Assembly: GCA_021767705.1 (NCBI GenBank)
Contig: JAASSU010000002.1
Coordinates: 1-63,107 of the forward strand
Length of the DNA stretch: 63,107 nucleotides
Direction: 5' to 3'
Source: Bacteroidota bacterium
Lineage (GTDB): Bacteria > Bacteroidota > Bacteroidia > Bacteroidales > JAIPAH01
Of this stretch, positions 5,707 through 33,256 are shown piece after piece (position 1 is the first letter of the stretch; every line of letters starts with the position of its first letter). The position numbers and the translations under genes are program-made. The notes under the pieces were generated by a model. That model had not been told where the DNA came from. It made no database searches and saw only the letters and a list, made by a program, of their open reading frames with translations.

Positions 5707-5858
5707 TAATTAGTATATTTGCAGTTGAATCATGTATCGCCTGGCTTTCAGCAGGAAATTGTTCAGAACACCGCAATCGGGTTGATTAGCCAACATCAGG
5801 ACATAAAACTTACTGTTCAGGTCATACAAATCGAAACTTACAAAAGAGGAAAAAAGAA

Positions 5859-18346: not shown

Positions 18347-19405
18347 ATGAATGCTAAAGCGATTATATTAACGACAATTACCGCAATTCTGAGTTTACTG
18401 GCAACGGCCCAGAACGGTTTGGTGGCGCATTGGAGTTTTGACAACATGAGTGGGGATACCATTTTTGATTTTTCGGGGAATGATTACCACGGCAACAACT
18501 ACGGAGCTGTAATCATTGATGGAAAAGTGGGGGAGGCACTGGCATTTGATGGATTAAATGATTATGCCCGCATCACTGAGAATGGGTCGGCACCACCTGA
18601 AGTTCTGAGAAGTTTGGGTAAAGGTTCTATTTCACTCTGGTTTAAGGTGGATGTTATTCCAACGGATTATGGCATTGCACCGATGTTCTTTTATGGTGCA
18701 GAAGAAATGTGTGATTTTTTTGATGCAGCAAACCAGGGAATGATCATAGAACTCGGTCACAGCCCGATATTTCCGGGTTCAGAAGAGTTGTTCTTTACGA
18801 TGTGGAAGAACGGTTGCACTTATCCTTCATTCTGTTTCGATTCTAATTTCCCGATTCCCGAAGGAGAATGGGTTCACTTTGTAGCCGTAGTGGGCGAAGA
18901 TTTTAATACCGGATACCTGAATGGCTATGAAATGACCAACCGGTTTTACAACTTTGGTAATTCTGAGGAATCTCAGTTTTTTGAAGATGCTGTGGTTCAC
19001 GAGGCACTGTGGTTTGGGAAAGGGCACTGGGACGAAACCGTACAATATTTTGACGGGGCTATCGACGAGGTAAGGATTTACGATCGGCCTCTTACCAGCC
19101 AGGAAGTGGAAGAGCTCTACAGTGATACGGCTATGATTACATCAGTGAATTCTTTGCCAAAGCCTTCCAGTATCAAAGTCCACCCAAATCCGGCAAGCAA
19201 TACTATTTATTTTGATGTATCCGGTTCGCAAGAGCAGCCCGAATCAATTGAATTAATAGGCCCGGGTGGGCAAATGGTATTGAAACAGCAAGTTTCGGGG
19301 AGTTCAGGGAAAATTTCATTGGCCGGAATGACCAATGGACTCTATATTCTCAAAATCTACTTCGACAAGGGCGTTATACGTAAAAAAGTATTGATAAACA
19401 ATTAG
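18347..19405 (+). CDS. Secreted LamG-domain protein with a T9SS type-A C-terminal sorting domain
   Basis: Signal peptide; concanavalin/LamG signature (LVAHWSFDN..., IDEVRIYDRPLT); C-terminal KVHPNPASNTIYFD...GLYILKIYFDKG, typical of Por secretion tails. Confidence 0.8.
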   Translation: MNAKAIILTTITAILSLLATAQNGLVAHWSFDNMSGDTIFDFSGNDYHGNNYGAVIIDGKVGEALAFDGLNDYARITENGSAPPEVLRSLGKGSISLWFKVDVIPTDYGIAPMFFYGAEEMCDFFDAANQGMIIELGHSPIFPGSEELFFTMWKNGCTYPSFCFDSNFPIPEGEWVHFVAVVGEDFNTGYLNGYEMTNRFYNFGNSEESQFFEDAVVHEALWFGKGHWDETVQYFDGAIDEVRIYDRPLTSQEVEELYSDTAMITSVNSLPKPSSIKVHPNPASNTIYFDVSGSQEQPESIELIGPGGQMVLKQQVSGSSGKISLAGMTNGLYILKIYFDKGVIRKKVLINN

Positions 19406-19520
19406 TGACGTACTGAAAAGTCCGCTTTTCTTAACCATTTACCAGTTTTGAGTTTGTCATATTGTGAATTGAGATTTATTGTTTAGATTGTGCTTGTCCA
19501 CGTTAGGTATTAACCTATGA

Positions 19521-20672
19521 TTATTCTGTTTGATAGCGTGGTATTCTTGAAGGCAGCCTGGTCAGCAGTTCGTAGTTCATACTGTTGTTCATATCGCTGA
19601 ACGAACTGACTGTGATGGTCTTTTCTCCCTGTTCGCCTATTAATACCACTTCATCGTGTACTTTCACTTCCGGTAAATCTGTTACATCTACAACCATCAT
19701 GTTCATGTTAACGGCCCCTACCACCGGAACACGTTTTCCGTTGATGAGCACATGCCCCATATTGCTCAGGTTTCTGCTAAACCCATAACCGTAACCAACG
19801 GGAACAGTGGCTATTTTGCTGTCGCGGTTGGTAATATAACTGGCACCATAGCTAACATACTCATTTTCTTTTACCCGGTTAACGCTCATTACTTTGCTTT
19901 TCCACGATAAGACCCTTTTTAGTGGATCTTTTAGTGACTTCCCGTTTTCAAGGTGCAGCATCTTTGTTTCGTTATCGGGCCAAAATCCATAATTCGATAT
20001 GCCCACACGTACCAGATCCATCGAGGACTCAGGAAAGTTTAGCACCCCTGCAGAGCATGCAAGATGGCGGTATCCCGGTTTCAAACCTGATTGCATAAAG
20101 TTACCGCATAGTTTTTTGAATGTGCTGATTTGTTGCCTGATACGGGGAAAGTTGCCCAGGTTTTCTGCTCCTGCAAGGTGCGAGCACAAGCCTTCCAAAA
20201 CAAGGTTTTCAGAATTGGACTTTAGTGTTTCCATTACCCAGGGCAACTGGTCGTTACAAAAACCAGTGCGGTGCATCCCGGTTTCCAGCTCCACATGTAT
20301 CCTTGCAGGCTTGGAGGTCTTTTTGCTTATCTCAACCACCTTTTCAAGCCTTTCGGGGGTGAAAACAAAAAACGAAATGTCGTTCTCAATAGCCCATTCA
20401 AGATAATCATCATCAACAAAACCCATGATCATGATGTGGCACGTTTCCTCTTTGACTTTGATGGCCCGCCGGGCTTCTTCCACACTGAAGACGGAAAAAT
20501 GATCCACGCCGCATTCTTCGATCATTGGCAACAGGTCTTCAATACCATGGCCGTAGGCATTAGCCTTGATGACCATAGAGAATTTAGCTCCCGGGCCAGC
20601 CTTTTCTTTCATAAACCTGATGTTGTTGTTTAACGCACTTTTGTTTAATTCGATGTAGGATGTAAAAAGCAT
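19521..20672 (-). CDS. alr: Alanine racemase
   Basis: PLP-lysine motif VIKANAYGHG, collinear with Alr throughout. I chose the start at MLFTSYIELN (20672). The track's longer ORF (to 20747) adds 25 non-conserved residues. Confidence 0.88.
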   Translation of the reverse strand: MLFTSYIELNKSALNNNIRFMKEKAGPGAKFSMVIKANAYGHGIEDLLPMIEECGVDHFSVFSVEEARRAIKVKEETCHIMIMGFVDDDYLEWAIENDISFFVFTPERLEKVVEISKKTSKPARIHVELETGMHRTGFCNDQLPWVMETLKSNSENLVLEGLCSHLAGAENLGNFPRIRQQISTFKKLCGNFMQSGLKPGYRHLACSAGVLNFPESSMDLVRVGISNYGFWPDNETKMLHLENGKSLKDPLKRVLSWKSKVMSVNRVKENEYVSYGASYITNRDSKIATVPVGYGYGFSRNLSNMGHVLINGKRVPVVGAVNMNMMVVDVTDLPEVKVHDEVVLIGEQGEKTITVSSFSDMNNSMNYELLTRLPSRIPRYQTE

Positions 20673-20791
20673 TTTCTGTAAAAGTTTTATAATGTTAAAG
20701 TTCTCATGACTCTTTCGGAAAAAACCATGCTTCAAAAGTGGCAGCACACTTTTTTCAGGCTCTGCTCAATCCTGTTAAAGAAAAAGGCAGC

Positions 20792-22732
20792 TCAAACCAG
20801 CGCCACATCGGTATGGATTTCGAGCAAGGCTGTTCCGTTATGCGACAGTACTTTTCTCATAGCTTCGCTCAGCTCTTTCTTATCGGTGACTTTAACACCC
20901 AGGGCCCCGCAACTGTTGGCGTATCCTGAAAAATCAGGATTGCCCAGGCCGGTGGCAAACACATCCAGCTCACCTGAACGCTGCTCTTTCGATATCTTGC
21001 CAAGCTCATTGTTGTTGAGCAGGATGAGCTTGATGTTCATCCCGTATTTTACGGAGGTGGTAAGCTCGGCCATATACTGGGCAAAGCCCCCGTCGCCGGC
21101 CACTGCCACTATCTGCTTGTTCCCTTTGGTTGCGGCCCAGGCGCCCATGGCCGCCGGAAAAGCAAAGCCAATAGAGCCCAGGTAACCCGACATCAAAAAC
21201 TGCTGGTCTTTACTCTCGAAATAACGCCCCAACGAATAGGCATTATTCCCCACATCCACGCATACAACCGCATTAGCATCAATCAGATCCGACAAATGGC
21301 TAAATACCGTCACGGAATTGATGCCTTTACCGCGGTCTTCGGCCAGCCTCTTATCTTTTTCTTGATGCCAGATTTCCCAGCGCTGTTTTATTTCAGGCCG
21401 CTGGTCTGTAGTGGTCACCTGATCCTTGAGTGCTTCTCTGAAAAGTTTCATGGTGGCAGACAACTCCCCCCACACCGGGGCATCAATTTTATGAAACTTA
21501 CTCAATGCCAAGGGATCCATATCGACCTGGATAGTGGGCTTTTTGGGTGTGATGCCGGTATGGTTGCTGAAAGACGCCCCCAACACAATGAGCAGGTCGC
21601 TTTCGTTCATAAACCACGAAGCGATAGGCGTGCCGCTGCGCCCGAGGACCCCACCGGCCAGCGGATGGTGATCGGAGATAAGGCCTTTGCCTTTGAAAGT
21701 GGTAAGCACCGGAGCGTTCAGTGTTTCAGCAAAAGCGATAATATCTTTCATATGGAATCGTGCCCCGTGGCCTACGATCACCACCGGCCTTTTTGCTTCT
21801 TTGATTAGCCCCAGCGCTTTGTTAAAGCTTCCTTCGGATGGGGAAATGGCATGAGCGCCCAGCCTGCCTTCAGGGGTCTGGGCTTGCTCATTGCCGGCAG
21901 GCAGCTCCTGTATCTCGTCAGGGAAAGTCAGGTGTGAAACATCGCGGTTAATAAGGGCATGTTTAATGGCGAGGGTCGCAAGTTCGGCATGCTGGCTGTC
22001 GCGCTGGATACGGTGATTGAATCCGGCTACCGTATTAAAAGCCCTCACCAGGTCCACTTCCTGGAAATTTCCTGTGCCCACGACCTGTGTAGCCACTTGT
22101 CCGGTCAGAGCCAGCAAGGGAGCCCGGTCGACTTTCGCATCCCACATGCCGGTAAACATGTTGGTAGCCCCGGGGCCGGCAATGGAAAAACAGGCTGCCG
22201 GTTTACCCGTAAGTTTCCCATAAGCGCTGGCGGCAAAAGCACCCGCGCCCTCATGACGGATGCCGATATACTTCAGCTTATCTTCTTTCTGTGCCCTCCT
22301 GAGGGCATCGGCCATTCCGAGGTTCGAGTGTCCCACCATTCCGAAAACAGTATCCACACCCCAATTAGCCATCGTTTTCACCATGACATCTGAAAGTGTT
22401 GTCTCATGTGGTTTCTCTTCTTCTATCCCAATGTAAACGCCATCTTCTCTTTCTTCCACAGGGTAAGTATCCACACCATCATCAAAACCCGGTGCTTTCC
22501 CGGTACAGGGGTGGTAATCCCAGCCGTGCCACGGGCAGCGCAGGATGCCGTTCTCAATGCTTCCCTCGCCAAGCGGGCCTCCCTGGTGCGGGCAATGGTT
22601 GTCGAGGGCGCATATCTTCCCTTCGTAATGTGACAGGGCTATTTGCTTTTTGCCGGCTGTTACGGTCATTACACGGCCGGCGGCCAATTCAGATTTGTTT
22701 TCGAGTACTTTTATCCAGTTCATAGGCTTCAT
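20792..22732 (-). CDS. Rieske [2Fe-2S] domain fused to a thiamine-diphosphate enzyme (PoxB/ALS/Xsc superfamily)
   Basis: Residues 47-69 read CPH-x16-CPWH (Rieske ligands). The TPP N-terminal domain follows (GVDTVFGMVGHSN..., GPGATNM), then the central domain, then the C-terminal ThDP-binding motif GDGGFAQY...LNNN. Confidence 0.85.
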   Translation of the reverse strand: MKPMNWIKVLENKSELAAGRVMTVTAGKKQIALSHYEGKICALDNHCPHQGGPLGEGSIENGILRCPWHGWDYHPCTGKAPGFDDGVDTYPVEEREDGVYIGIEEEKPHETTLSDVMVKTMANWGVDTVFGMVGHSNLGMADALRRAQKEDKLKYIGIRHEGAGAFAASAYGKLTGKPAACFSIAGPGATNMFTGMWDAKVDRAPLLALTGQVATQVVGTGNFQEVDLVRAFNTVAGFNHRIQRDSQHAELATLAIKHALINRDVSHLTFPDEIQELPAGNEQAQTPEGRLGAHAISPSEGSFNKALGLIKEAKRPVVIVGHGARFHMKDIIAFAETLNAPVLTTFKGKGLISDHHPLAGGVLGRSGTPIASWFMNESDLLIVLGASFSNHTGITPKKPTIQVDMDPLALSKFHKIDAPVWGELSATMKLFREALKDQVTTTDQRPEIKQRWEIWHQEKDKRLAEDRGKGINSVTVFSHLSDLIDANAVVCVDVGNNAYSLGRYFESKDQQFLMSGYLGSIGFAFPAAMGAWAATKGNKQIVAVAGDGGFAQYMAELTTSVKYGMNIKLILLNNNELGKISKEQRSGELDVFATGLGNPDFSGYANSCGALGVKVTDKKELSEAMRKVLSHNGTALLEIHTDVALV

Positions 22733-22755
22733 ATTACAAATATTTTGAAAATTAA

Positions 22756-23616
22756 TTAAATAGCCAGTGTGTAAAGCATAAACAGACCCAAAATGGCGAA
22801 CAGCACCGAAATGCTGACCTTCATTTTGTCTTCGGGCACCTTGCTTTGCAGTTTAGCACCAATCTGACCGCCAATGATCACGCCGGGCCCTGTAAAAATA
22901 ATAAGGTTCAATACTTGCTCAAATGTTTCGGGCCCCTGATTGAGGAAAGCTACAAAATGTCCGGCAGATGCTATAAACACGGTAATGACCACTACAAAAA
23001 TGGAAGTCCCCACTGCTACCGGTGGCGGCACTTTACAACGGGCCACCAGGTGGTATTCCTGCAACTCGGCCAGCCCTACTGATATCATGCCCAAAAAGCC
23101 TCCTCCGATGGCTGCAAACGATCGGCCCATATTTTTGTTGCACACCGTGTAGTGGTACACATTGCCCTTGCCATCGGTAAGCTCGCTTTCGTAGGTTTTA
23201 TAAAATTCATGCTGCCTTTCTTTTTCCTTTTTCTCGCGTTCTTCCTTGCGCCATGAATTGTAAAGCTGAAAGCCGATAAAAACCAATCCCACCGCAAAAA
23301 CAGCTTTAAGGATAACCGGAGGGACTGCTTCGCTGTAGACAGCCCCCAGTATGGCAAAGGGAACGGAAAAAATCAACAGGTTGATGGCCAGCTTATAATC
23401 GACCAGCCGGGATCGCATGTAGGCGATGGCCCCTGATGTAAACCCAAAAAATTCGGTGGCCAGGGCCGTTCCTATTGCAACCGTGGGGTCGAGCCGCAAA
23501 GCCAGGATAAACAGTGGCGAAAAAAATACCGCCCCGCCCACACCGCTCGACATGGCGATTGTGGCTATCAGAATCGACAAGGGAAACAAGTACCAGAATT
23601 CAAGCGCGAGTTCCAT
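22756..23616 (-). CDS. TauE/SafE-family anion (sulfite/organosulfonate) exporter
   Basis: 286-aa protein with 4+4 TM helices, glycine-rich helices (SSGVGGAVFFSP, GGGFLGMISVG) and a charged central loop of about 45 aa. Confidence 0.8.
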   Translation of the reverse strand: MELALEFWYLFPLSILIATIAMSSGVGGAVFFSPLFILALRLDPTVAIGTALATEFFGFTSGAIAYMRSRLVDYKLAINLLIFSVPFAILGAVYSEAVPPVILKAVFAVGLVFIGFQLYNSWRKEEREKKEKERQHEFYKTYESELTDGKGNVYHYTVCNKNMGRSFAAIGGGFLGMISVGLAELQEYHLVARCKVPPPVAVGTSIFVVVITVFIASAGHFVAFLNQGPETFEQVLNLIIFTGPGVIIGGQIGAKLQSKVPEDKMKVSISVLFAILGLFMLYTLAI

Positions 23617-23619
23617 AAC

Positions 23620-24426
23620 CTATAATTTTTGATGTAGATATCCGTTAGCGGCTTCCTGGATAAAACTTTGAATCATTTGATTGTCAGTTTTCAGATTTTG
23701 CCCAGTGAGGCGGTTGAGGGTTAAAACAGATCCTTTCCATGCCCCGTTGGTTATCCACTGTCCATCAGAAAGCCCTGCTAATTTTTTATAGTCTATCTCT
23801 GTTCCGGAAGCATATCCGGCAAGGTAGAAATAGGATTGTCCAGCCATGCTGTCTTCCATAGCCAGGCCAAAACCAATACCGAAGCCAGGGCTTACCTGCG
23901 CATACACTCCCGTGTCGAAGTGGTGGGGCCAGATACGTATCTCACTTTCAGCCTGTAAAAACCCCAGGAAATGGAGGCAGGCTTCATTGGCAAGCTGACG
24001 GAAATAGCTCCATTTTTGGATACCACTCTCATTGATGTCGTTTGAAGCTATGCGCCCTATTTTGTAATCGGGGATTTCAAAATGCAGTTCCCGGAATATT
24101 TTTTCCGCCGGAAGCCCTACCGACTGTGGATAAACTGAAACGTCCTGTTCGATTTCCTGCATGGTTTTGTTGAAAACCGAAATAGTGTCCTTTATGCCGA
24201 GATGCTGATCCATCCATTCAAAATGCATGGCTCTGACATTCAACGCAAGAAAGATTTTTTGCTGCTTGTGTTCCACCCAGCGGCCCGTAAGTTTGCCCGA
24301 TACCGGATCGAAATAAAGATTGGTGTGGCTGTCGTCTTCTTTTTCGGGCAGAAAAGCCCTGTTGGTCTTGGCAAGCACCTGGCTGAGCCAGTGTACCTGC
24401 CGGTCTGTCTTATTGTATTCCTGCAT
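23620..24426 (-). CDS. Hypothetical protein (no family recognised), embedded in the operon
   Basis: 268-aa ORF, soluble-looking. Its start overlaps the upstream gene's 3' end by 17 nt, and its stop lies 3 nt before the tauE-like start. Confidence 0.65.
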   Translation of the reverse strand: MQEYNKTDRQVHWLSQVLAKTNRAFLPEKEDDSHTNLYFDPVSGKLTGRWVEHKQQKIFLALNVRAMHFEWMDQHLGIKDTISVFNKTMQEIEQDVSVYPQSVGLPAEKIFRELHFEIPDYKIGRIASNDINESGIQKWSYFRQLANEACLHFLGFLQAESEIRIWPHHFDTGVYAQVSPGFGIGFGLAMEDSMAGQSYFYLAGYASGTEIDYKKLAGLSDGQWITNGAWKGSVLTLNRLTGQNLKTDNQMIQSFIQEAANGYLHQKL

Positions 24427-26017
24427 AGTTAATTCCTGTTAATTGGTGTATTGAATAATCGATAGTTGAAAGATCGTCTGCGTTAAACTGCGTAACGGAT
24501 GAATAACCACAGGCTCTTGCAATGACCTTCATAAGCTCGTTGCTGGCATCAAAAAAGTTGTGCAGTTGCTTTGCCGAATTTTGTACGATGATGCGGTTCC
24601 TGAGGTTTTCTTTTTGTGTGGCAATCCCCACCGGGCAATTGTTGGTGTGGCAGGCCCTCATGCCGAGGCAGCCGATAGCCTGCAGGGCCGCGTTAGATAC
24701 TGCGATGGCATCGGCCCCCAACATCAGTGCTTTAGCAAAGTCATCAGCCACACGGAGGCCACCGGTAACAATGAGTGTGACATCACCGGCCTCTTTCTTA
24801 TCGAGATGTTTCCGTGCCCTGGCAAGTGCCGGGATCGTGGGCACGTTGATGTTGTTACGCAGGATGGAGGGCGCGGCTCCTGTTCCGCCGCCACGGCCAT
24901 CGAGTATAATGTAATCGGCAGAAGCTTCGAGGGCAAAATCAATATCGGCTTCTAGGTGGCTTGCCGCGATTTTAAACCCCACGGGAATCCCTCCGGTTTC
25001 TTCCCTGACCCGGTCGGCCAGCTCTTTGAAATCGGCAGGGGTATTCAAGTCGGGGAAAGCAGCCGGCGAAATGGCGGCCTGTCCTTCTTCCAATCCCCTG
25101 ACAGAAGCTATCTCGCCGGTGACCTTGTGCCCGGGAAGGTGCCCGCCGGTGCCGGTTTTTGCTCCCTGACCTCCCTTGAAGTGGAAGGCCTGTACTTTTC
25201 TGACCTTGTCCCACGAAAAACCAAACTTCCCGGACGCCAACTCATAAAAGTAACGTGAATTGCTTTGCTGTTCTTCAGGCAACATACCCCCTTCGCCACT
25301 GGCAATGCCGGTACCGGCCATTTCAGCGCCTTTAGCAAGGGCTATCTTGGCTTCGCGCGATAAGGCCCCGAAGCTCATGTCCGACACAAAAACAGGCATG
25401 TCGAGCACTAAAGGTTTTTGGGCGCGAGGGCCGATCACCACCTTAGTATCCACCTTGTCGTTGTCCATCAAAGGTTTCCGCGACAGTTGCGCCGGCAGAA
25501 ACTGAATCTGCTCCCACTTCGGAAGGGTGTTTCTGTCCACTCCCATTGCCTCGGTAGAGCCGTGGTGGCCGACATTCTTCAGCCCGTTACGGGCCAACTC
25601 CTGGATATATCCGGTAAAAGGCTCGGTATCCTCGGGGTGCGTATCGGCATACTGACCCATATACGCATCGCGATCGAAGGGCTGCGGGTGCTCCTCGGCA
25701 AATGCCTCCACTTCATCGGCATCTACCAGCACCTGGTCGTTCTCCACTTTAGCATAAAACTTTTGCAGGGCCTCCTCGTTGTTGTATTCCGAAACGCCGC
25801 TATCATAGCGGTAATCCCAGAAATGCACCCCGCAGATGAGGTTATCACCTTCGATGTGGCCATCGGCAAGCAGGGCGCCGCGGTGCAGGCAACGGCCATA
25901 CAGCACCGAAATGTTCTCATCGTAGCGTATCACCACTAAATCAACATCTTTGCAGATAGCATGGGCCGGGGCACGGTCTTGCAGTTCCGAAAACTTTAGA
26001 ATGGGTATTAAATTCAT
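24410..26017 (-). CDS. Rieske [2Fe-2S] domain fused to a glutamate-synthase-type FMN domain (GltB domain 2-like)
   Basis: Residues 43-65 read CLH-x16-CGVH. The GltS FMN-domain motifs follow: DMSFGALSREAKIALAKGA, SGEGG, and KGGQGAKTGTGGHLPGHKV. Confidence 0.85.
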   Translation of the reverse strand: MNLIPILKFSELQDRAPAHAICKDVDLVVIRYDENISVLYGRCLHRGALLADGHIEGDNLICGVHFWDYRYDSGVSEYNNEEALQKFYAKVENDQVLVDADEVEAFAEEHPQPFDRDAYMGQYADTHPEDTEPFTGYIQELARNGLKNVGHHGSTEAMGVDRNTLPKWEQIQFLPAQLSRKPLMDNDKVDTKVVIGPRAQKPLVLDMPVFVSDMSFGALSREAKIALAKGAEMAGTGIASGEGGMLPEEQQSNSRYFYELASGKFGFSWDKVRKVQAFHFKGGQGAKTGTGGHLPGHKVTGEIASVRGLEEGQAAISPAAFPDLNTPADFKELADRVREETGGIPVGFKIAASHLEADIDFALEASADYIILDGRGGGTGAAPSILRNNINVPTIPALARARKHLDKKEAGDVTLIVTGGLRVADDFAKALMLGADAIAVSNAALQAIGCLGMRACHTNNCPVGIATQKENLRNRIIVQNSAKQLHNFFDASNELMKVIARACGYSSVTQFNADDLSTIDYSIHQLTGINYAGIQ

Positions 26018-27237
26018 GGTTCCAATTTTAGATTTGTTTTTATTTCAATTTCGGACAAAAGGGTTTTGTGCACCGGGCATTTGTTCGCTATTTCGAGCAG
26101 TTTTTGGCGTTGTTTGTCATCCAACTCCCCAATCAACTCTATTTCCCTTGAAAACTGATCGATACGGCTGCTTTCGTCGTTTTCGCATTTAGCGCAATCT
26201 TCTCCATGCACTTTGTTATGGTCGATGTGCACATTGACCTCATCAAGTTTCCATTTCTTACGGTCGGCATAAATCCTGATGGTCATGGCTGTGCAGGTAG
26301 CCAGGCCTGATGAGACGAGATCGTAAGGGGTTGGGCCAAAATTGTTTCCTCCGTATTTTTCGGGTTCATCCCCGGTCAAAAAATGATCGCCGGCCTTAAT
26401 GGCGGTGGTAAACTTGTTTTCTTCAGTGAGGCTGGCCACCACCTGCCTCTTAGTCTGCGGCCTGGCAGGCTCCTTAAAGTCGATATACCTTTTGGCCCAG
26501 TGGGCAATCACATTACCAATGTAGCGCGAATCACCGCCATCAGAAAGCAGGTGGTCGGCCCCATCAAGAGAAACAAAGCTTTTGGGGTGGCGCGCCGCCT
26601 GGAATATTTTTGCAGCATTCTCTATTTCCACCACCCTGTCTTGTGGCGAGTGGGACACAAGAATGGCTTTGCGGAGGTTTTTCAGCACATCATCCATGTT
26701 GACCGCTTTCAGGTCATCAAGAAATTGTTTTTTGATTTTGAAAGGCCTTCCACCGATGTTTACTTCTGCCATGCCCTTTTCTTCAATATCTTCAAGGCTT
26801 GAAGAAAGTAGTTTGGAAACATGCATCGGGTCGGAGGGGGCACCGATAGTGGCTACGGCATCTACCGTTTTCATGGAGTGGGCCGCATATAAAACCGCAG
26901 CACCGCCCAGCGAATGGCCGATAAGTAGTGAGGGTGCCATGAAATTTTCTTCGAGAAAGCTGGCTGCGGATTTCAGGTCATCGATATTGCTTGAAAAATT
27001 GGTGTCGGAAAAGTCCCCTTCACTGTCGCCCAAGCCCGTAAAATCAAAGCGCATGATACCAAACCCTGCTCCGGTAATGGCCCTGCTTATATTACGTACC
27101 GCCGAAAGGTTTTTTGTGCAGGTAAAGCAGTGTGCAAACAGTGCAAAACCGCCCGGTTTTCGGTCGGCAGGCAGCTCTATCCGGGCATTCAGTTCAATGC
27201 CTTCTTTGTTGGTAAATGTAACTTTCTGACTTTTCAT
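26014..27237 (-). CDS. Bifunctional alpha/beta-hydrolase / OsmC-family protein
   Basis: Nucleophile elbow GHSLGG in the N-terminal half. The C-terminal OsmC-like region includes GLATCTAMTIRIYA and ANKCPVHKTL. I chose the start at MKSQKVTF (27237); the track ORF extends to 27288. Confidence 0.85.
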   Translation of the reverse strand: MKSQKVTFTNKEGIELNARIELPADRKPGGFALFAHCFTCTKNLSAVRNISRAITGAGFGIMRFDFTGLGDSEGDFSDTNFSSNIDDLKSAASFLEENFMAPSLLIGHSLGGAAVLYAAHSMKTVDAVATIGAPSDPMHVSKLLSSSLEDIEEKGMAEVNIGGRPFKIKKQFLDDLKAVNMDDVLKNLRKAILVSHSPQDRVVEIENAAKIFQAARHPKSFVSLDGADHLLSDGGDSRYIGNVIAHWAKRYIDFKEPARPQTKRQVVASLTEENKFTTAIKAGDHFLTGDEPEKYGGNNFGPTPYDLVSSGLATCTAMTIRIYADRKKWKLDEVNVHIDHNKVHGEDCAKCENDESSRIDQFSREIELIGELDDKQRQKLLEIANKCPVHKTLLSEIEIKTNLKLEP

Positions 27238-27291
27238 TGGGTTCTTATTTTTGATAATTCCACATCGTGTTAAACTTATTTTCAGCACATT

Positions 27292-28653
27292 TCAGGCATG
27301 AACCGGCAAACGTCCTTCGGCTACCTGCGAAAAATACCTTTCAATATTTTGTATTCCCTGGTTAATGAGTGGACAGTAAGCCTTGAAAAAAGCCGTTTGT
27401 TCCTGTTCTGAGGATGGGTTTTCACGTTTCCAGTTTTCAAGAACTGCATCGCCGTCATAATCAACAAAACTGAACCTTACCGAAAAATCATCCTCAGGCA
27501 AGAGTAAACTGTTGCCCGGTAACAGGGCCGTATGTTCAACCTCTATCAAATGTTCGCATAAATTAGCGCAGTTGGTTAAACCTATTGTTTTCAGTTCCTC
27601 AGCATACTCGTTAAAATCAACATAAAGATAAAAACCCCCATAAGGCACTGTGGCTTTCACACCGTGTATATTGTTTAATAAACCAGCAGCAATTCGTCCG
27701 ATTGTTGCATGAATGCGTGCCGTATCCGTCATATATTTTTCAACCGCCTCAATCCTGCTGAATCCTGCCAAAGCTGCATATTGAATGGGGGCGGCCACAC
27801 ATGAGTAGGTAGAGCCAGCCACAATCAACACATCCTTGATCAGCTTCTCATTATCCGGGAAAACACCTATCCCGAGCCGATACCCCCCGGCAGAGCGGTC
27901 TTTCGACAGCCCCCCGGTTACGATAGTGCCTTCGGGAAAGATTTTTCCCATGCTGATGAATTTGCTGAAATCGAAAGAAGTCCGCGCATAGATTTCATCG
28001 GCTATTACTATGATGTTGTGTTTCCGGCAAATGGTGGCCAGGGCTTTTAGCTCATCTTCTGTGTAAACGGCACCTGTGGGATTGTTGGGGTTGTTCAGGA
28101 TGAGAATATGCTGATCGTGGCTCGAATTGTTTGCTGCTTTTTCGAGAAGGGCCGGGGTCAGTTTAAAATGGCTGTCTTCGTGCAACCTGATGGGCTGTAC
28201 CTGCTTTTTCAGGATAAGAGCCTGTGGAAGATAGCTGACCCACGATGGGGTGGGTATCAATACGTCCCCTTCCGTAACACTCAAAATAATACTGATTATT
28301 TCTTTGCTTCCCGGGCTGATGATTACCTGGCGGGCCTGGCTCTGCAGCTTGAAAACATCATTGTAGTAATCTGAAACAGCCTTCCTTAATTCGGCAATGC
28401 CCGCCGTGGGCAGGTAGCTGTGCTTATTCGCATTATCTCTGAGCGCATTGATGATTTCAGCAGGAGGCGAAAATGGCGACTGTCCGAAAGCAAAATGATG
28501 ATAAGGTCGGTGGCAGCCTATCTTCGAGCATTTTTCACGATATTTTTTTATCTGGTCGTTGATACGCAGGTTGGCCGGAATGGCGATGCTATCGAGATGA
28601 TGCTCGAGTTTTATTTCCATTTTTTTTCTCTTGTTGAATAAATTAAAAATCAT
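27292..28653 (-). CDS. PLP-dependent aminotransferase, class I/II fold (a C-S lyase cannot be excluded)
   Basis: Motifs NNPNNPTG, ADEIY and the PLP-lysine motif LSKDRSAGGYRLG. The ATG at 28653 overlaps the upstream stop (ATGA). An alternative ATG lies at 28620. Confidence 0.85.
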   Translation of the reverse strand: MIFNLFNKRKKMEIKLEHHLDSIAIPANLRINDQIKKYREKCSKIGCHRPYHHFAFGQSPFSPPAEIINALRDNANKHSYLPTAGIAELRKAVSDYYNDVFKLQSQARQVIISPGSKEIISIILSVTEGDVLIPTPSWVSYLPQALILKKQVQPIRLHEDSHFKLTPALLEKAANNSSHDQHILILNNPNNPTGAVYTEDELKALATICRKHNIIVIADEIYARTSFDFSKFISMGKIFPEGTIVTGGLSKDRSAGGYRLGIGVFPDNEKLIKDVLIVAGSTYSCVAAPIQYAALAGFSRIEAVEKYMTDTARIHATIGRIAAGLLNNIHGVKATVPYGGFYLYVDFNEYAEELKTIGLTNCANLCEHLIEVEHTALLPGNSLLLPEDDFSVRFSFVDYDGDAVLENWKRENPSSEQEQTAFFKAYCPLINQGIQNIERYFSQVAEGRLPVHA

Positions 28654-29606
28654 AAGCCCCAGAGTGAATTAACAAACCATTTACGGTGGTCGTAATAATT
28701 TTTGATTATCCTGAAACCTGCTTCAGTTGCATGTTCCGATATCATCTGTTCATCATATTTCTGTGAAATTTCCACGAAAATGGTTTCATTTTCGGCAAAC
28801 GAAATAGACATATCGAGTTTTTCTAAACGAACAGCCTGTTCTTTTTTACTTACTAAAAAACTTTTTGCGGCCCCGCTGTTTTGGTCATATTTTTCTTTGT
28901 GAACGAAATTGGCAGTGTTAAAATCAGCCTCCAATTCTTCATTGATGCGTGTAAGCAGGTTGAGGTTAAAGGCTGCAGTAAGGCCCTGAGGGTCGTTGTA
29001 GGCTTTTAGTATTATTTCCGGATCTTTTTTTAAATCAAAGCCAATGAGTAGTTTATCCCCTTCATTTAATACTTTACGCACTTGTTGTAAAAAGTTTACG
29101 GACTGCCCATAAGTAAAATTCCCAATGTTTGATCCGAGGAAAAGGGCAATCTTAGGTTTTGATCCGTTTAACCCTGATATTAAGTGAAAATAATCGCCCG
29201 TAAGCCCCTCAATCTTTAATTGTGGCAACTCCGATGCCAGTTGCTGTTGAAGTTGCATAATTGCCTGATGCGAAATATCAATGGGGATGTACCTGAAATC
29301 CATTCCCTGGTGAAGCAATGCTTTTAATAGTATTTTTGTTTTCAAACCATCACCGGCCCCCAGTTCAATGATTTCAAATTCACCGGCATCCGAAATGAAA
29401 TCCCGGCAGATAGTATTTTTTTGTTCAGAAAATATTTCAAGCTCACAGTCGGTGAGGTAATATTCATCCATTCGCATGATCGCCTCAAAAATTTCGCTGC
29501 CTTTTTGATCATACAGGTACTTTGACTGAAGATATTTTGGGGAAGACGAAAGCCCCCTCCGGACCTCTTCAGCAAATTCTGTTGTGGTTAATGTAGCATT
29601 TTCCAT
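28650..29606 (-). CDS. EgtD-like SAM-dependent amino-acid N(alpha)-methyltransferase (Methyltransf_33 family)
   Basis: 318 aa. Motifs PKYLQSKYLYDQKGSEIFEAI...EYYLTDCELEI and ELGAGDGLKT...YIPIDIS are collinear with histidine N-alpha-methyltransferase EgtD. The substrate is not inferable. Confidence 0.82.
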   Translation of the reverse strand: MENATLTTTEFAEEVRRGLSSSPKYLQSKYLYDQKGSEIFEAIMRMDEYYLTDCELEIFSEQKNTICRDFISDAGEFEIIELGAGDGLKTKILLKALLHQGMDFRYIPIDISHQAIMQLQQQLASELPQLKIEGLTGDYFHLISGLNGSKPKIALFLGSNIGNFTYGQSVNFLQQVRKVLNEGDKLLIGFDLKKDPEIILKAYNDPQGLTAAFNLNLLTRINEELEADFNTANFVHKEKYDQNSGAAKSFLVSKKEQAVRLEKLDMSISFAENETIFVEISQKYDEQMISEHATEAGFRIIKNYYDHRKWFVNSLWGL

Positions 29607-29763
29607 TTGTATTGAGTTCGTTTTTGAACCGCTGTTTTTATTGAGAAAAAGTGTTCTATTTATGAATAGTTTATAAAACTAATTAATTTTTTCTGTTTAA
29701 CACATTCTACCCGGATAATTCATGAAGTATCGCTGTCTTCTCCTGTTAAGCTTAACCCAAAGG

Positions 29764-31101
29764 CTAACTATCTGCAAGTTCTTTTTTGACTTCCGGTAAC
29801 TTGCTTTCATTTGACAAATGTTTTGGCTTTAGCAGGATGCGCAAGGATTGGTCGTAGGTAAAATAATTCCAAGTCCAGTTCAGGAAAATGAGCATCCGGT
29901 TTTTCACGCCCATGATGGTGAATAAATGAACCAGCGACCACAGCACCCAAGCTGCAAAGCCTTTGATTTTTCCTACAGGCAAATCAGCCACGGCGAGGTT
30001 ACGGCCTATGGTAGCCAGCGAACCCTTATCCCTATATTCAAAGTCTTCCTCTTTTTCGCCACTATTGGCTTTTACCAGGTTTTTTGCCAATTGCTTCGCT
30101 TGCTGTAATGCCGCTTGAGCAACCTGCGGGTGGCCATTGGGATATTTGGGGGTTTCCATCAGGCTGATATCGCCGATAGCAAAAATGTTCGTGTGGCTTC
30201 TGATCCTGTTTTGTCGATCCACCAGGATGCGTCCGCCCCGGCCATATGCTTCCTGTGGCAGGCCCAGCACTGCATTTGCTGTAACGCCCGCCGACCAGAT
30301 CAGGGTTTTTGACGAAACTGAGCTGCCATCAGACAACCTCACACAAGAACCATCGTGGTGTTCTACCCGGGTTTTCAGGTGAACTTCAACGCCCAATTTC
30401 TGGAGGTACTTCAGTGCGCTTGCCGATGCTCGTTCCGATAAGGCTGCCAGCACCCTTGGAGCAGCTTCATAAATGGCAATGCGCATTTTCGAAAGATCCA
30501 GTTCCGGGTATTCTTTCGGGAAGATGTATTTGCGCATTTCAGCCAAAGCCCCGGCGAGCTCCACACCCGTTGGGCCTCCACCAACAATGGCAATGTTCAT
30601 GTATTGTTCTGCTTTTTTCGGATCTGTTTCCAGCAGAGCCTGCTCGAAATGTTCGAGAATGCTGTTGCGGATAAGGATGGCATCGGAAGCGGACTTCATC
30701 GACAAGGCATTGTTTTCCATTTCTTTCTGGCCGAAAAAGTTGGTTTTTGCGCCCATAGCCAGCACAAAGTAATCATATTTCAGCCGCCCTATGCTGGTAA
30801 CAACCTCATTGGCCCCTGCATCCACACGCTCTATTTCTGCAATGCGGAAATGTACATCGCCGGCATTTTGCAGCACTTTCCTTAACGGGAAGGAGATAGC
30901 ACTGGGCTCAAGCCCGGCAGTGGCCACCTGGTAGAGCAGTGGCTGAAACTGGTGAAAGTTGTTCTTGTCCAGTAAAATAATCTGAAACCCTTTCCCCAGT
31001 AATTTCCGGGTCAGTTTCAACCCGGCAAAACCTGCGCCGGCAATTACTACCCTTTTCTTATTTGTGCCTGGTATATTTGGTATTGCATTCATATTCTCCA
31101 T
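29764..31101 (-). CDS. Type II NADH dehydrogenase (NDH-2)
   Basis: Two dinucleotide folds (VVIAGAGFAGL and IAIVGGGPTGVELAG), FAIGD, and a C-terminal membrane-anchor region. Confidence 0.88.
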   Translation of the reverse strand: MENMNAIPNIPGTNKKRVVIAGAGFAGLKLTRKLLGKGFQIILLDKNNFHQFQPLLYQVATAGLEPSAISFPLRKVLQNAGDVHFRIAEIERVDAGANEVVTSIGRLKYDYFVLAMGAKTNFFGQKEMENNALSMKSASDAILIRNSILEHFEQALLETDPKKAEQYMNIAIVGGGPTGVELAGALAEMRKYIFPKEYPELDLSKMRIAIYEAAPRVLAALSERASASALKYLQKLGVEVHLKTRVEHHDGSCVRLSDGSSVSSKTLIWSAGVTANAVLGLPQEAYGRGGRILVDRQNRIRSHTNIFAIGDISLMETPKYPNGHPQVAQAALQQAKQLAKNLVKANSGEKEEDFEYRDKGSLATIGRNLAVADLPVGKIKGFAAWVLWSLVHLFTIMGVKNRMLIFLNWTWNYFTYDQSLRILLKPKHLSNESKLPEVKKELADS

Positions 31102-31205
31102 AAAACATTCTGATTGTTATTACGAATCAATTTTTTTATTTGAGGAATTTCTTCCTGTAACCCATTTGGATTGTATAAACTCTTCCCGCATAAACAAGAC
31201 TATGT

Positions 31206-31850
31206 TTAGTCTTCACTTTCTAATGCTTCCAGGATATCCGCCACATTCGACCGCTTTTTGTAATCGGGGTTAAACTGACGCCAGGTAATGGTCCCGCTTT
31301 GGTCTATCACATAAGTGGCCGGTATGGGCAGTCGCTGGCTCTCATCAGAATGTGTTTTTTTCAGTTTTGCCCCCAAGAGGGTGTTGTAAGTTATTAAGGT
31401 AGCTTTAGAGGGCTTAAAAGTGACATCATAGGCGTCTGAAATTTTGTAGCCTTCATCGTACAGCAAGGTAAATTCCGCGCCCGTTTTCTTCTCCATCTTG
31501 CCCAGGTATTCCGGCTTTTCGGGGGATATTGCAATGACTTTGGCCCCTTTTTCCTCTATAAGCTTCAGGCTGTCTTGTATTTTGCTCAGGTGCTTGTTAC
31601 AAACCGGGCACCAAAACCCGCGGTAAAAAATTAATACCACCGGCCCTTGTTTTAGGGCTGCTTCAAGTGAAAATGTATTGTTGTTGGCATCGAGGGCGCT
31701 AAAAACAGGGGCTCTTGTGCCCACGGAAAGGCCCTCGGCTTCTTTGGCCGAACGGTAGTCTTGTGCTTTCATATCTGATATATTTAAGGTGAAAATAATG
31801 GCAAGGATGAGCCCTTGGATGGCTTTGCTTTTTCTGCTGTTTCTATTCAT
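31206..31850 (-). CDS. Secreted thioredoxin-fold peroxiredoxin/redoxin (AhpC/TSA family)
   Basis: Signal peptide, then FYRGFWCPVCNKHL (CxxC). I chose the start at MNRNSRK (31850); the track ORF extends to 31883. Confidence 0.82.
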   Translation of the reverse strand: MNRNSRKSKAIQGLILAIIFTLNISDMKAQDYRSAKEAEGLSVGTRAPVFSALDANNNTFSLEAALKQGPVVLIFYRGFWCPVCNKHLSKIQDSLKLIEEKGAKVIAISPEKPEYLGKMEKKTGAEFTLLYDEGYKISDAYDVTFKPSKATLITYNTLLGAKLKKTHSDESQRLPIPATYVIDQSGTITWRQFNPDYKKRSNVADILEALESED

Positions 31851-32042
31851 GCTTGTTGTTTTTTGTCGTTTCAAAATGACCAATCACCCTATTAGTGTTT
31901 GTTTTTCGAAAACCTGACAAAACGAACAGCATTTTTTTGGGACAGGCTGTTTAATGGGGCGTATGGGGGCACATATTTTGAGATCTAAACCACAAACCCA
32001 AAGGCAGGATCAAAAACATAATCATCACAAATCATTATTTAT

Positions 32043-32085
32043 TGGAATAATATGGACTTTAATTCCAAATTATTCCATATTTTTG
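32043..32085 (+). promoter_or_regulatory. Inverted repeat plus -7 box immediately upstream of the DUF4143 ATPase gene
   Basis: TGGAATAAT (32043-32051) is the reverse complement of ATTATTCCA (32069-32077). TATTTTTG (32078-32085) ends 4 nt before the ATG, which implies a very short leader or none. Confidence 0.35.
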
Positions 32086-32089
32086 AGCT

Positions 32090-33256
32090 ATGATTACAAG
32101 AAAAGCATCAGCATTACTTAAACAACTGGCAGGCTATTTCAAAGTTGTGGCCGTTATAGGGCCCCGTCAATCCGGGAAAACAACGTTGGTAAAGGCAGTC
32201 TTTGGTGATAAAGCTTATGTTAACCTGGAGACAGCCACCAATCTCAGTTTTGCATTTGATGATCCGATAGGGTTTCTGGAGCAATATCCGTCAGGGGCGG
32301 TAATTGATGAAGCACAAAAAGCACCTCATTTGTTTTCATATTTACAGGAAATTGTTGATCGGCCAGTAAAACCAGGCATGTTCATACTCACGGGATCGAA
32401 TAATTTCCCGCTCAACAAGAACATATCACAATCCTTGGCCGGACGGGTAGGCTATCTGAATTTATTGCCATTCAGTTACAACGAAATTGAAATACACCAC
32501 AAAGATTTTGACGAAACTGATTTTATGGTGAATGGGTTTTATCCGCCTATTTACGACCAAAAAATCCCTTTTCATTTGTGGTACCCAAATTATATCAAAA
32601 GTTATATTGAACGGGATGTCAGGCAGATTAAAAACATCAGCAACCTCATTTTTTTTGAAAAATTTATGCAATTGCTGGCCGGACGGACAGCACAGGAAGT
32701 CAATTACAACTCCCTTTCTGTTGAACTCGGAGTGGATGTGAAAACAGTCCAATCCTGGGTAGCCGTGCTGGAGCAGAGTTTTGTTGTTTTCTTGTTAAAG
32801 CCTTACCACAAAAATTTTAAGAAAACAATAGTAAAACGGCCTAAACTGTATTTCTATGATCCCGGAGTGGTATGCTCCTTACTTGGAATCACTTCAAAGG
32901 AAACCCTGAACATGCACCCCCTTAAAGGTGCCGTTTTTGAAACGATGGTAGTTTCGGAGTTTATTAAATTACAGCAACAAAAAATCAGTTCCCCTAAATT
33001 CTATTTTTGGCGTGATAAAACCGGAAGGGAGATTGATTTAATCATAGAAAAACAGCGATCTACATACCCCTGTGAAATAAAATCCGGTAAAACAATCCAA
33101 AAAGATTTTTTCAAGAACCTACAGTATTGGAATAAGTTAAGCGGTTCGGAAAAAGCTGTGATTATTTATCCGGGTGCCCAGGAGCAAAAAAGGAGCAACG
33201 GTATCGAAATTCTCAACTGGCAGCATATTGACAGGCTGTTTGCTGATGTGGATTAA
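32090..33256 (+). CDS. AAA-family ATPase with a DUF4143 C-terminal domain
   Basis: Walker A GPRQSGKTT, Walker B-like AVIDEAQK, and the DUF4143-type C-terminal half. It is the only plus-strand gene within a 25-kb minus-strand block and is visibly AT-rich. Confidence 0.82.
   Translation: MITRKASALLKQLAGYFKVVAVIGPRQSGKTTLVKAVFGDKAYVNLETATNLSFAFDDPIGFLEQYPSGAVIDEAQKAPHLFSYLQEIVDRPVKPGMFILTGSNNFPLNKNISQSLAGRVGYLNLLPFSYNEIEIHHKDFDETDFMVNGFYPPIYDQKIPFHLWYPNYIKSYIERDVRQIKNISNLIFFEKFMQLLAGRTAQEVNYNSLSVELGVDVKTVQSWVAVLEQSFVVFLLKPYHKNFKKTIVKRPKLYFYDPGVVCSLLGITSKETLNMHPLKGAVFETMVVSEFIKLQQQKISSPKFYFWRDKTGREIDLIIEKQRSTYPCEIKSGKTIQKDFFKNLQYWNKLSGSEKAVIIYPGAQEQKRSNGIEILNWQHIDRLFADVD

Follow-up and report, generated by a model that had tools for sequence, protein, structure and literature searches.

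A putative modular ergothioneine/thiol-stress island with two Rieske-fused enzymes in a Bacteroidota genome

What does a set of seven tightly packed genes encode when it corresponds to no pathway that can be named? The question is raised by a 63,107-nucleotide stretch of DNA from a Bacteroidota bacterium (GenBank assembly GCA_021767705.1, contig JAASSU010000002.1, positions 1 to 63,107 of the forward strand), which we refer to as the window and whose coordinates are used throughout. Seven consecutive open reading frames (ORFs), all on the minus strand, occupy positions 29606 to 20792. In this order they encode an EgtD/EanA-type L-histidine N-alpha-methyltransferase (MT), a class I aminotransferase (AT), a fusion of an alpha/beta-hydrolase (esterase) with an OsmC-type peroxidase, a fusion of a Rieske [2Fe-2S] domain with a glutamate-synthase-type domain carrying flavin mononucleotide (FMN) and a [3Fe-4S] cluster (the GltS-like enzyme), a protein only remotely similar to DUF5996, a TauE/SafE-family anion permease, and a fusion of a Rieske [2Fe-2S] domain with a pyruvate-oxidase-like thiamine diphosphate (ThDP) enzyme. 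A first-pass annotation, made from the sequence alone, had read these genes as one co-translated unit without a nameable pathway and had offered two hypotheses, a biosynthetic route to an N-methylated amino-acid betaine and an organosulfonate module. The seven same-strand frames, with their overlaps and gaps, were confirmed when we re-read ORF positions and junctions directly from the sequence, and Pfam upheld all domain calls (PF10017, PF00155, PF12146/PF02566, PF00355, PF01645, PF01925 and PF02776/PF00205/PF02775). A literature search gave no described pathway or paper for the whole set. We suggest, with about even confidence, that the locus represents not a seven-step pathway of fixed content but an ergothioneine/thiol-stress island, modular and rapidly rearranging, with a Rieske electron-transfer pair.

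The genes are closely coupled. ATGA start/stop overlaps join the MT and AT genes (28650-28653) and the esterase-OsmC and GltS-like genes (26014-26017), the GltS-like and DUF5996-like genes overlap by 17 nt (24410-24426), and gaps of 3 nt and 23 nt separate the DUF5996-like gene from TauE and TauE from the Rieske-ThDP gene. Since each of the seven ORFs has strong homologues, and since a GltS-like/DUF5996-like overlap of 14-17 nt is retained in relatives with 80-86% GltS-like identity, we conclude that the seven ORFs are not a product of chance.

Start/stop coupling alone does not define a pathway, as relatives at 90-97% nucleotide identity, from which single genes have been cleanly removed, make plain. 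The first of these loci (L170) is 90-94% identical to the window and collinear with it through the alanine racemase gene alr, a major facilitator superfamily (MFS) gene and a helicase gene; a different gene replaces the NDH-2 gene found upstream of MT in the window. Its AT gene has been reduced to the first ~111 nt and fused just upstream of the GltS-like start, with loss of esterase-OsmC (position 28539 is joined to 26043), and the DUF5996-like gene is entirely gone (24418 is joined to 23616), while MT, GltS-like, TauE and ThDP genes are kept. In the second (L171, 92-97% identical) a peroxiredoxin gene leads straight to the esterase-OsmC and GltS-like genes, which are followed by unrelated genes, and MT is missing. 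Because relatives this close have dropped them, AT, esterase-OsmC, the DUF5996-like gene and NDH-2 are individually dispensable, and because such relatives lack AT and esterase-OsmC, the DUF5996-like gene, or MT, the seven genes do not constitute one obligate pathway.

The first-pass annotation had proposed a gene-neighborhood check, and its outcome was mixed: the GltS-like, DUF5996-like and ThDP genes recur together, whereas the full seven-gene set is not conserved. In 45 well-flanked loci anchored on the GltS-like gene (6 kb or more of sequence to either side), we scored companion genes within 10 kb. Among the 45, the DUF5996-like gene is found in 26 and the Rieske-ThDP gene in 22, followed by a membrane protein with a Ferric_reduct domain and a C-terminal Rieske domain (16), a Cys-rich protein that often accompanies it (f4, 15), DUF427 (12), malic enzyme (8), TauE, MT and esterase-OsmC (6 each), the ergothioneine synthesis gene EanB (5), orthologues of AT (2, with two further non-orthologous matches of 22-27%) and alr (0). 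In 36 of 75 loci the GltS-like gene has a gene of the DUF5996-like family as its immediate neighbor, downstream in 30 and upstream in 6. The recurrent unit is thus the GltS-like gene, frequently joined by the DUF5996-like gene, the ThDP gene or both and in some loci by TauE, not the seven-gene set. TauE (22756..23616, minus strand, 286 aa; PF01925 at 123.6 bits versus a cut-off of 32.6) is found together with GltS-like, DUF5996-like and ThDP genes in five loci (L026, L050, L079, L087, L109), with GltS-like and ThDP genes in L170, where the DUF5996-like gene is gone, and with the GltS-like gene in four more (L006, L016, L085, L086).

The GltS-like enzyme at the center of this unit (24410..26017, minus strand, 535 aa) is composed of PF00355 and PF01645, the latter at 306 bits; its remaining Pfam matches are FMN_dh and IMPDH only, and Pfam found neither a glutamine amidotransferase nor a GXGXG domain. 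Its score on the GltS large-subunit model PRK11750, 140 bits, is far below the cut-off of 1047. The first-pass annotation had placed Rieske clusters in both redox enzymes of the locus, and the CxH...CxxH ligands are indeed kept in each. Three invariant cysteines of the GltS-like enzyme (Cys450, Cys456 and Cys461) align to the Cys-x5-Cys-x4-Cys segment of Azospirillum brasilense GltS, which we take to be the binding site of the 3Fe-4S cluster; our literature search for published roles of GltS residues found none. Most of the FMN-adjacent QGAK...R segment is also retained, reading QGAKTGTGGHLPG...R. Homologues of the enzyme number in the thousands, the best 120 among them being 74-100% identical, and at least ~590 matches, counted as one genome per species, lie at roughly 70-80% identity. 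Among the matches listed, the carriers are mostly Bacteroidota, with Balneolaceae and single metagenome-assembled genomes (MAGs) of Chlorobiota and Lentisphaeria. In a Draconibacterium MAG (L025:789-3100) we additionally observed a second GltS-like gene that lacks the Rieske domain and lies immediately downstream of an esterase-OsmC gene, the Rieske-fused copy being present in that locus as well.

The DUF5996-like protein (23620..24426, minus strand, 268 aa) had been described as belonging to no recognisable family, which agrees with the absence of any Pfam or NCBIfam match. Its relatives match PF19459 (DUF5996) weakly in 8 of 42 cases, with a best E-value of 1.8e-4; the window protein itself does not, and at stricter thresholds PF19459 gave no match for the few distant relatives scanned. 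The AlphaFold model of the protein is confident (pLDDT, the predicted local distance difference test, 94.6) and is composed of two alpha-beta-alpha halves, for which Foldseek found no PDB match at E<=0.001, the best template-modelling score being 0.2. Throughout the family a RIWPHHFD motif is invariant, and numerous His, Asp, Tyr and Arg residues are conserved. Its profile is matched by 1711 representative clusters, and the best 150 of these are short stand-alone proteins except one with an FtsJ-like N-terminal part.

The third recurrent member, the Rieske-ThDP enzyme (20792..22732, minus strand, 646 aa), carries PF00355 followed by PF02776, PF00205 and PF02775, each of the last three at 112-116 bits. 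Its best NCBIfam model is the pyruvate oxidase PRK08611, and because the score of 405.5 bits falls below the cut-off of 742, we regard the enzyme as a clade distinct from pyruvate oxidase and PoxB. It scores 284.7 bits against a cut-off of 792 on the model of ubiquinone-dependent PoxB (PRK09124), 340 on a pyruvate dehydrogenase model and 307 on an acetolactate synthase model. The best PDB match is Escherichia coli PoxB (3EYA), in an alignment that stops at residue 525 of 572, so that the last ~47 PoxB residues have no counterpart; a central flavin adenine dinucleotide site is expected from this homology. A malic enzyme gene is found in the same locus as the ThDP gene in five cases (L019, L035, L051, L087 and L165), directly upstream of it in L087, and these neighbors fit pyruvate as the substrate of the ThDP enzyme, which the homology likewise suggests. 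Both the GltS-like and the ThDP enzymes belong to known superfamilies, score below curated cut-offs, and bear Rieske fusions that are not covered by the best-matching models and structures. Our literature searches found no paper on Rieske-GltS, Rieske-ThDP or DUF5996 proteins, or on a link between them and ergothioneine.

We predict the MT (28650..29606, minus strand, 318 aa) to be an EgtD/EanA-type hercynine synthase. It matches PF10017 (Methyltransf_33) at 341.7 bits over residues 11-316, exceeds the equivalog cut-off of TIGR03438 (egtD) with 305.2 versus 290.9 bits, and stays below the cut-off of the EasF subfamily model (173 versus 205.55 bits). The closest PDB match is Mycobacterium smegmatis EgtD (4UY6, E 1e-50), in which we take Y39, F47, Y56, N166, Y206, T213, M252, E282 and S284 to be the histidine-binding residues; in the alignment with 4UY6, eight of these nine are kept in the MT, the exception being M252, which is replaced by Ser. 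With orthologues encoded immediately downstream of EanB, the MT shares 54-63% identity, and it retains all columns that are invariant in a six-sequence alignment with such orthologues. As the Ser is itself invariant among the EanB-linked orthologues, the substitution is no evidence for a new specificity. EanA produces trimethylhistidine (hercynine), and EanB converts hercynine to ergothioneine (PMC6282198).

The expected partner is absent from the window. Metagenome contigs were scanned with an alignment of MT orthologues, and 80 MT-anchored loci were compared. Among the 51 with at least 1.5 kb of upstream sequence, EanB is present in 38, an EgtB-like sulfoxide synthase in 5 and neither of them in 8; EanB or EgtB is thus in the same locus as the MT orthologue in 43 of 51, usually directly upstream. 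The window belongs with the minority that has neither: tblastn queries with EanB and EgtB gave no match in the 63-kb window, and neither is found among the genes called in a further 8 kb and 10 kb of the 101,664-bp contig (ENA ERZ23499083, scaffold_40). At the position that EanB occupies in relatives, just upstream of MT, the window encodes an NDH-2-type flavoprotein. EanB is missing from both L170 and L171 as well, which argues that the orphan MT is stable in this lineage.

Linkage between the GltS-like unit and ergothioneine genes is seen in other genomes. A gene encoding three rhodanese domains lies directly upstream of an MT orthologue in five GltS-anchored loci (L001, L025, L081, L086 and L087) and also in L082; the protein from L001 matches EanB structures 6H98 and 6KTV with E-values of about 1e-212. 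When the MT-anchored loci with at least 5 kb downstream are considered (n=25), 10 carry a GltS-like or ThDP gene within 10 kb and 14 carry DUF427, for which our literature search gave only an assignment to the beta-tent fold (PMC4287342). The linked genes occur in several orders, including EanB-MT-GltS-DUF5996-like-ThDP, EanB-MT-DUF427-DUF5996-like-GltS-ThDP-TauE, GltS-DUF5996-like-TauE-ThDP-EanB, and DUF427-EanB-MT-esterase/OsmC-GltS-DUF5996-like-TauE-malic enzyme-ThDP. In the cultured Allomuricauda sp. F6463D (L016, 10007-18658), the GltS-like, DUF5996-like, TauE and esterase-OsmC genes are followed by those for a glutathione-reductase-like disulfide oxidoreductase, DUF427, an EgtB-like protein (DinB_2 with FGE-sulfatase) and an EgtD-like MT. 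Co-location with two non-homologous sulfur-inserting enzymes, EanB and EgtB, points to a functional or regulatory tie to ergothioneine.

Several further arrangements around MT genes were observed. The metagenome loci L094, L095, L098 and L158 encode, between EanB and MT, a pyridine-nucleotide-disulfide oxidoreductase with 61-68% identity to that of Allomuricauda, and in L156 and L167 it lies just upstream of MT; it is a candidate ergothioneine-disulfide reductase. Orphan EanA-type MT genes are found in the order Beta_elim_lyase, MatE, MT, DUF427 (L127:6102-10383 and L169:7083-11247), with only the MatE, MT, DUF427 part in L155:8574-11267, and in L156 the gene after the orphan MT encodes a fused betaine ATP-binding cassette transporter of the OpuAC type.

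How could these proteins work together? From the gene identities, domains, cofactor ligands, conservation and linkage statistics described above, we infer the substrates, the direction of electron flow and a direct chemical link to ergothioneine as follows. The MT would trimethylate histidine to hercynine, from which EanB or EgtB would yield ergothioneine in most relatives. The recurrent set of GltS-like, DUF5996-like and Rieske-ThDP proteins, often with TauE, may form a self-contained electron-transfer pair. In architecture, the two Rieske enzymes resemble a reductase fused to its ferredoxin and a ferredoxin fused to its acceptor. The ThDP enzyme would oxidatively decarboxylate pyruvate, supplied in several genomes by malic enzyme, and would pass electrons from its flavin to its own Rieske cluster. 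These could then enter the Rieske domain of the GltS-like enzyme and proceed through its 3Fe-4S cluster to FMN, which would reduce an imine or a 2-oxo-acid in the manner of ferredoxin-dependent glutamate synthase. The DUF5996-like protein would be a frequent, translationally coupled, dispensable partner, and AT, esterase-OsmC, TauE, NDH-2 and a leader-bearing peroxiredoxin would be optional additions with a thiol/peroxide-stress theme; AT, where present, could consume the amino-acid product of the GltS-like enzyme.

A number of points weigh against this picture of an ergothioneine-associated island with a Rieske pair. Electron transfer from Rieske to Rieske between two soluble enzymes would be unusual. 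The ThDP gene is within 10 kb in only about half of the well-flanked GltS-like loci, so the pair may not be obligate, and in 14 of the 75 loci the GltS-like gene has none of the tracked companions. The motif QGAKTGTGGHLPG differs from QGAKPGEGGQLPG of canonical GltS, and therefore the GltS-like enzyme may act on a substrate other than 2-oxoglutarate. Ergothioneine genes (MT or EanB) occur within 10 kb in only ~10% of the GltS-anchored loci; as most loci lack them, the ergothioneine link could reflect shared regulation, not shared chemistry. EanB or EgtB could also be encoded elsewhere in the genome, ~81 kb of the 101.7-kb contig having been covered, and several of the comparison loci are metagenome contigs in which mis-assembly could have occurred.

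The same linkage data could be read more strongly, with the GltS-like, DUF5996-like and ThDP proteins, together with DUF427, esterase-OsmC and TauE, forming a dedicated ergothioneine system. Such a system would supply reducing power or sulfur for the C-S bond step, or would salvage oxidised ergothioneine, in which case hercynine would be re-thiolated with pyruvate as electron donor and sulfite exported by TauE. We consider this possible and on the whole unlikely. It would account for the frequency of GltS-like, ThDP and DUF427 genes in the well-covered EanA-type loci, for the appearance of the same companion set with EanB in many loci and with EgtB in Allomuricauda, and for the persistence of the linkage through several gene orders. 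Decomposition of oxidised ergothioneine also releases sulfite, and TauE is annotated as a member of a sulfite-exporter family. Hercynine is a product of that decomposition too (PMC6321398). Against a dedicated system stands the rarity of MT or EanB among the GltS-anchored loci noted above. The window, L170 and L171 all have a GltS-like gene in the absence of EanB, L171 even in the absence of MT, and the link with an EgtB-type gene comes from one locus only. To our knowledge, neither an imine reductase of the GltS type nor a ThDP enzyme is required in ergothioneine chemistry. With the same reserve, these six families can tentatively be proposed as an unrecognised ergothioneine-tied system of Bacteroidota and related phyla; if this were true, one form of it might be a cycle, driven by pyruvate, in which oxidised ergothioneine is regenerated or re-thiolated and the sulfite set free is exported.

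Another explanation abandons electron transfer between the two Rieske enzymes and treats them as independent catabolic dehydrogenases, the GltS-like enzyme oxidising glutamate or an amine related to it, the ThDP enzyme pyruvate. The acceptor would be a ferric-reductase-Rieske cytochrome b protein of Flavobacteriia, or the quinone pool reached via NDH-2-like partners. The usual flavobacterial order is the ThDP gene, a small membrane protein of unknown family (f6), a protein with a Ferric_reduct transmembrane domain and a C-terminal Rieske domain (f3), and f4, an unknown 263-aa protein rich in cysteine; the f6-f3-f4 set is found in L010 (12889-18557), L029, L031, L038, L049, L060, L066, L067 and L078 and looks like a transmembrane electron-transfer module. 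The presence of this ferric-reductase protein, with its two unknown membrane partners, in 16 of the 45 well-flanked loci speaks for independent dehydrogenases, as do the 43% identity between its Rieske domain and that of the ThDP enzyme in the window, and the many loci in which the GltS-like gene is found without the ThDP gene. In addition, the closest solved relative of the ThDP enzyme is PoxB, which donates electrons to the respiratory chain. On the other side, no ferric-reductase-Rieske gene is found in the window, GltS-type enzymes are physiologically reductive, and about half of the loci have both the GltS-like and the ThDP gene. We therefore find independent dehydrogenases doubtful.

The AT (27292..28653, minus strand, 453 aa) bears most directly on the first-pass proposal that the seven genes form a single biosynthetic line ending in a new N-methylated amino-acid betaine. 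It is an Asp/prephenate-aminotransferase-like enzyme with PF00155 (class I/II) at 168 bits, scores below every NCBIfam equivalog cut-off, has 5WMH (Asp/prephenate aminotransferase) and 1J32 (aspartate aminotransferase) as its closest PDB entries, and contains the LSKDRSAGGYRLG motif that had been pointed out. It lies upstream of esterase-OsmC and GltS-like genes only in L081 and L085; the short contig L082 is arranged in the same way and ends at AT. The tight start/stop coupling, including the MT/AT overlap, favors a single line, and so do the lack of EanB and EgtB at this locus, with orphan MT orthologues seen in varied surroundings in 8 of the 51 loci, and the substitution at one presumed substrate-site residue of EgtD. 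Yet the substituted Ser is invariant in EanB-linked orthologues and the MT exceeds the EgtD cut-off, AT is missing from all 80 MT-anchored loci, EanB or EgtB accompanies MT in 43 of 51, and most GltS-like and ThDP loci lack MT; L170 has lost three of the seven genes, and L171 keeps the GltS-like gene without MT. A linear route through ThDP chemistry, transamination, N-methylation and export is hence very unlikely. What stands of the proposal is that the MT family makes an amino-acid betaine, hercynine, that feeds an antioxidant, ergothioneine.

AT homologues elsewhere were seen directly downstream of an acetyl-CoA-synthetase-type gene (L083:7986-11335, 57%; L084:7855-11332, 52%), one of them in a Marinifilaceae MAG, and further homologues were named from Planctomycetota and Acidobacteriota. 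This adjacency in other lineages points to a different conserved core role for the AT family. It is speculation that the AT of the window might be a cysteine aminotransferase giving 3-mercaptopyruvate as sulfur donor to EanB, or an EgtE-like C-S lyase.

The weakest proposal, a non-canonical taurine/organosulfonate module in which AT would correspond to Tpa, the GltS-like enzyme to Ald/TauXY and the ThDP enzyme to Xsc with sulfite exported by TauE, is barely credible in spite of the TauE-family permease and a detectable similarity of the ThDP enzyme to the Xsc model PRK07525, for that similarity (230.7 bits against a cut-off of 620, 21st among the NCBIfam matches) is exceeded by the pyruvate oxidase, pyruvate dehydrogenase and acetolactate synthase models, Tpa is a class III aminotransferase and AT belongs to class I, being of the aspartate-aminotransferase type, the recurrent metabolic neighbor is a malic enzyme gene and not a sulfonate gene, and the companions are ergothioneine and peroxide-stress genes.

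The modular island that we favor carries several genes of less constant occurrence. The esterase-OsmC fusion (26014..27288, minus strand, PF12146 and PF02566) matches PDB entry 9WO1 over its full length (E 3.7e-117, residues 21-413), and its hydrolase part matches 5CML (residues 20-270). The OsmC part holds two cysteines, in ATCTAM and KCPVHK, to which we presume catalytic roles. The gene adjoins the GltS-like gene in L016, L025, L077, L081, L085, L087 and L171. The 3-nt gap that separates it from AT holds only if translation starts at a GTG codon; because its relatives are 404-410 aa long and the 9WO1 alignment starts at residue 21, the true start is probably M18 (about 27237), which would make the gap ~54 nt.

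The neighbors, NDH-2 and a peroxiredoxin, had been called redox-themed, and this holds. The NDH-2-type flavoprotein (29764..31101, minus strand, PF07992 and NDH2_C) has family members in L025, L085, L086, L087, L118, L121 and L161. Beyond it lies the AhpC/TSA-family peroxiredoxin/redoxin (31206..31883, minus strand, PF00578/PF08534), whose N-terminal hydrophobic leader resembles a signal peptide as judged by eye from the translation; orthologues are encoded upstream of EanB/MT or GltS-like genes in L001, L003, L081, L086, L091-L097, L170 and L171. On the downstream side, the likely start of alr (20672) is 119 nt from the ThDP gene. The suggestion that alr might belong to the unit was rejected, since it is missing from all 45 well-flanked loci and comes after the ThDP gene in the near-identical L170 alone.

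Further genes recur at greater distance. An ECF-type sigma factor (Sigma70_r2/r4_2) is encoded ~3 kb upstream of the island, at 34707-35264 on the minus strand, and is a possible regulator because its family (f11) recurs in nine GltS-anchored loci. A YjeF_N-domain protein, of a family linked to NAD(P)HX repair, is encoded at 33426-34103 (minus strand), and its family (f24) is present in five GltS-anchored loci. DUF3179 proteins lie at island edges in L087 (1205-2218 and 13036-14163), L006 (7843-8970), L025 (12322-13437) and L168, with 65-68% identity between lineages, and DUF2652 is found in L087 and beside the AT homologue of L084. In L085, whose GltS-like protein is 82% identical to that of the window and which has neither MT nor EanB in the locus, a rhodanese-thioredoxin fusion gene (5287-6018) is followed by NDH-2, AT, esterase-OsmC, GltS-like and TauE genes.

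Signals of transcription and regulation were sparse. Scans for sigma-70-type promoters and intrinsic terminators gave counts equal to the shuffled expectation, the Bacteroidota -7 motif TAnnTTTG is missing from all four intergenic regions, and a riboswitch and RNA element search over 19000-33000 gave no Rfam match at E<=1. The spacer between NDH-2 and MT (29607-29763), at the place of EanB in relatives, is 157 nt long with 31% G+C and contains a short inverted repeat (CTATT-N4-AATAG); neither a -7 motif of the Bacteroidota type nor an Rfam match was found in it.

Why does such a locus matter? The conserved module at its center is uncharacterized, while the MT belongs to a family already known that here lies outside a complete EanAB or EgtBD cluster. 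What is known of ergothioneine in bacteria largely concerns synthesis and uptake, and the locus bears on its use and maintenance: in this locus and its relatives, two Rieske-fused enzymes and a structurally unmatched protein travel with ergothioneine genes of the anaerobic type (EanB) and of the aerobic type (EgtB) alike, and these proteins are concrete candidates for a new redox chemistry linked to ergothioneine. A second subject on which the locus bears is that of stand-alone GltS-like FMN proteins, a large family in which hardly any functions have been assigned. Carriers of the module include cultured flavobacteria; the carriers listed include Allomuricauda sp. F6463D, Flagellimonas, Aquimarina, Polaribacter marinus and Roseivirga.

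Comparison with known systems places each part of the island. The Tpa/Xsc/Pta/TauE module of taurine dissimilation shares a TauE-family permease and a ThDP enzyme with the window, in which, by contrast, AT is of class I and the ThDP enzyme resembles pyruvate oxidase more than Xsc. Neither a phosphotransacetylase nor a gene specific to sulfonates is present among the genes annotated around the operon, which make up part of the window. Known esterase-OsmC fusions (9WO1, and 5CML for the hydrolase part) have the same PF12146 and PF02566 pair with full-length similarity, the gene of the window being distinguished by its place between the AT and GltS-like genes. In the EanA/EanB system of Chlorobium limicola (Clim_1148/1149; EanB structures 6H98 and 6KTV), the methyltransferase is of the same family (PF10017 and TIGR03438), but in the window the start/stop-coupled partner of the MT gene encodes a class I aminotransferase and not EanB. 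Pyruvate oxidase and PoxB (1POW, 3EYA) share all three ThDP-enzyme domains and are the best NCBIfam and PDB matches, whereas the window enzyme additionally carries an N-terminal Rieske domain. Finally, ferredoxin-dependent glutamate synthase (1OFD/1LLW) and the GltS alpha subunit (1EA0, 2VDC) have in common with the GltS-like enzyme the FMN synthase domain and the 3Fe-4S cysteines, and the logic is the same, from a one-electron Fe-S donor through the 3Fe-4S cluster to FMN; here the "ferredoxin" is a fused Rieske domain, and the motif reads GTGGH in place of GEGGQ. The module may represent an oxygen-tolerant counterpart of the chain that leads from pyruvate:ferredoxin oxidoreductase through ferredoxin to ferredoxin-dependent glutamate synthase.

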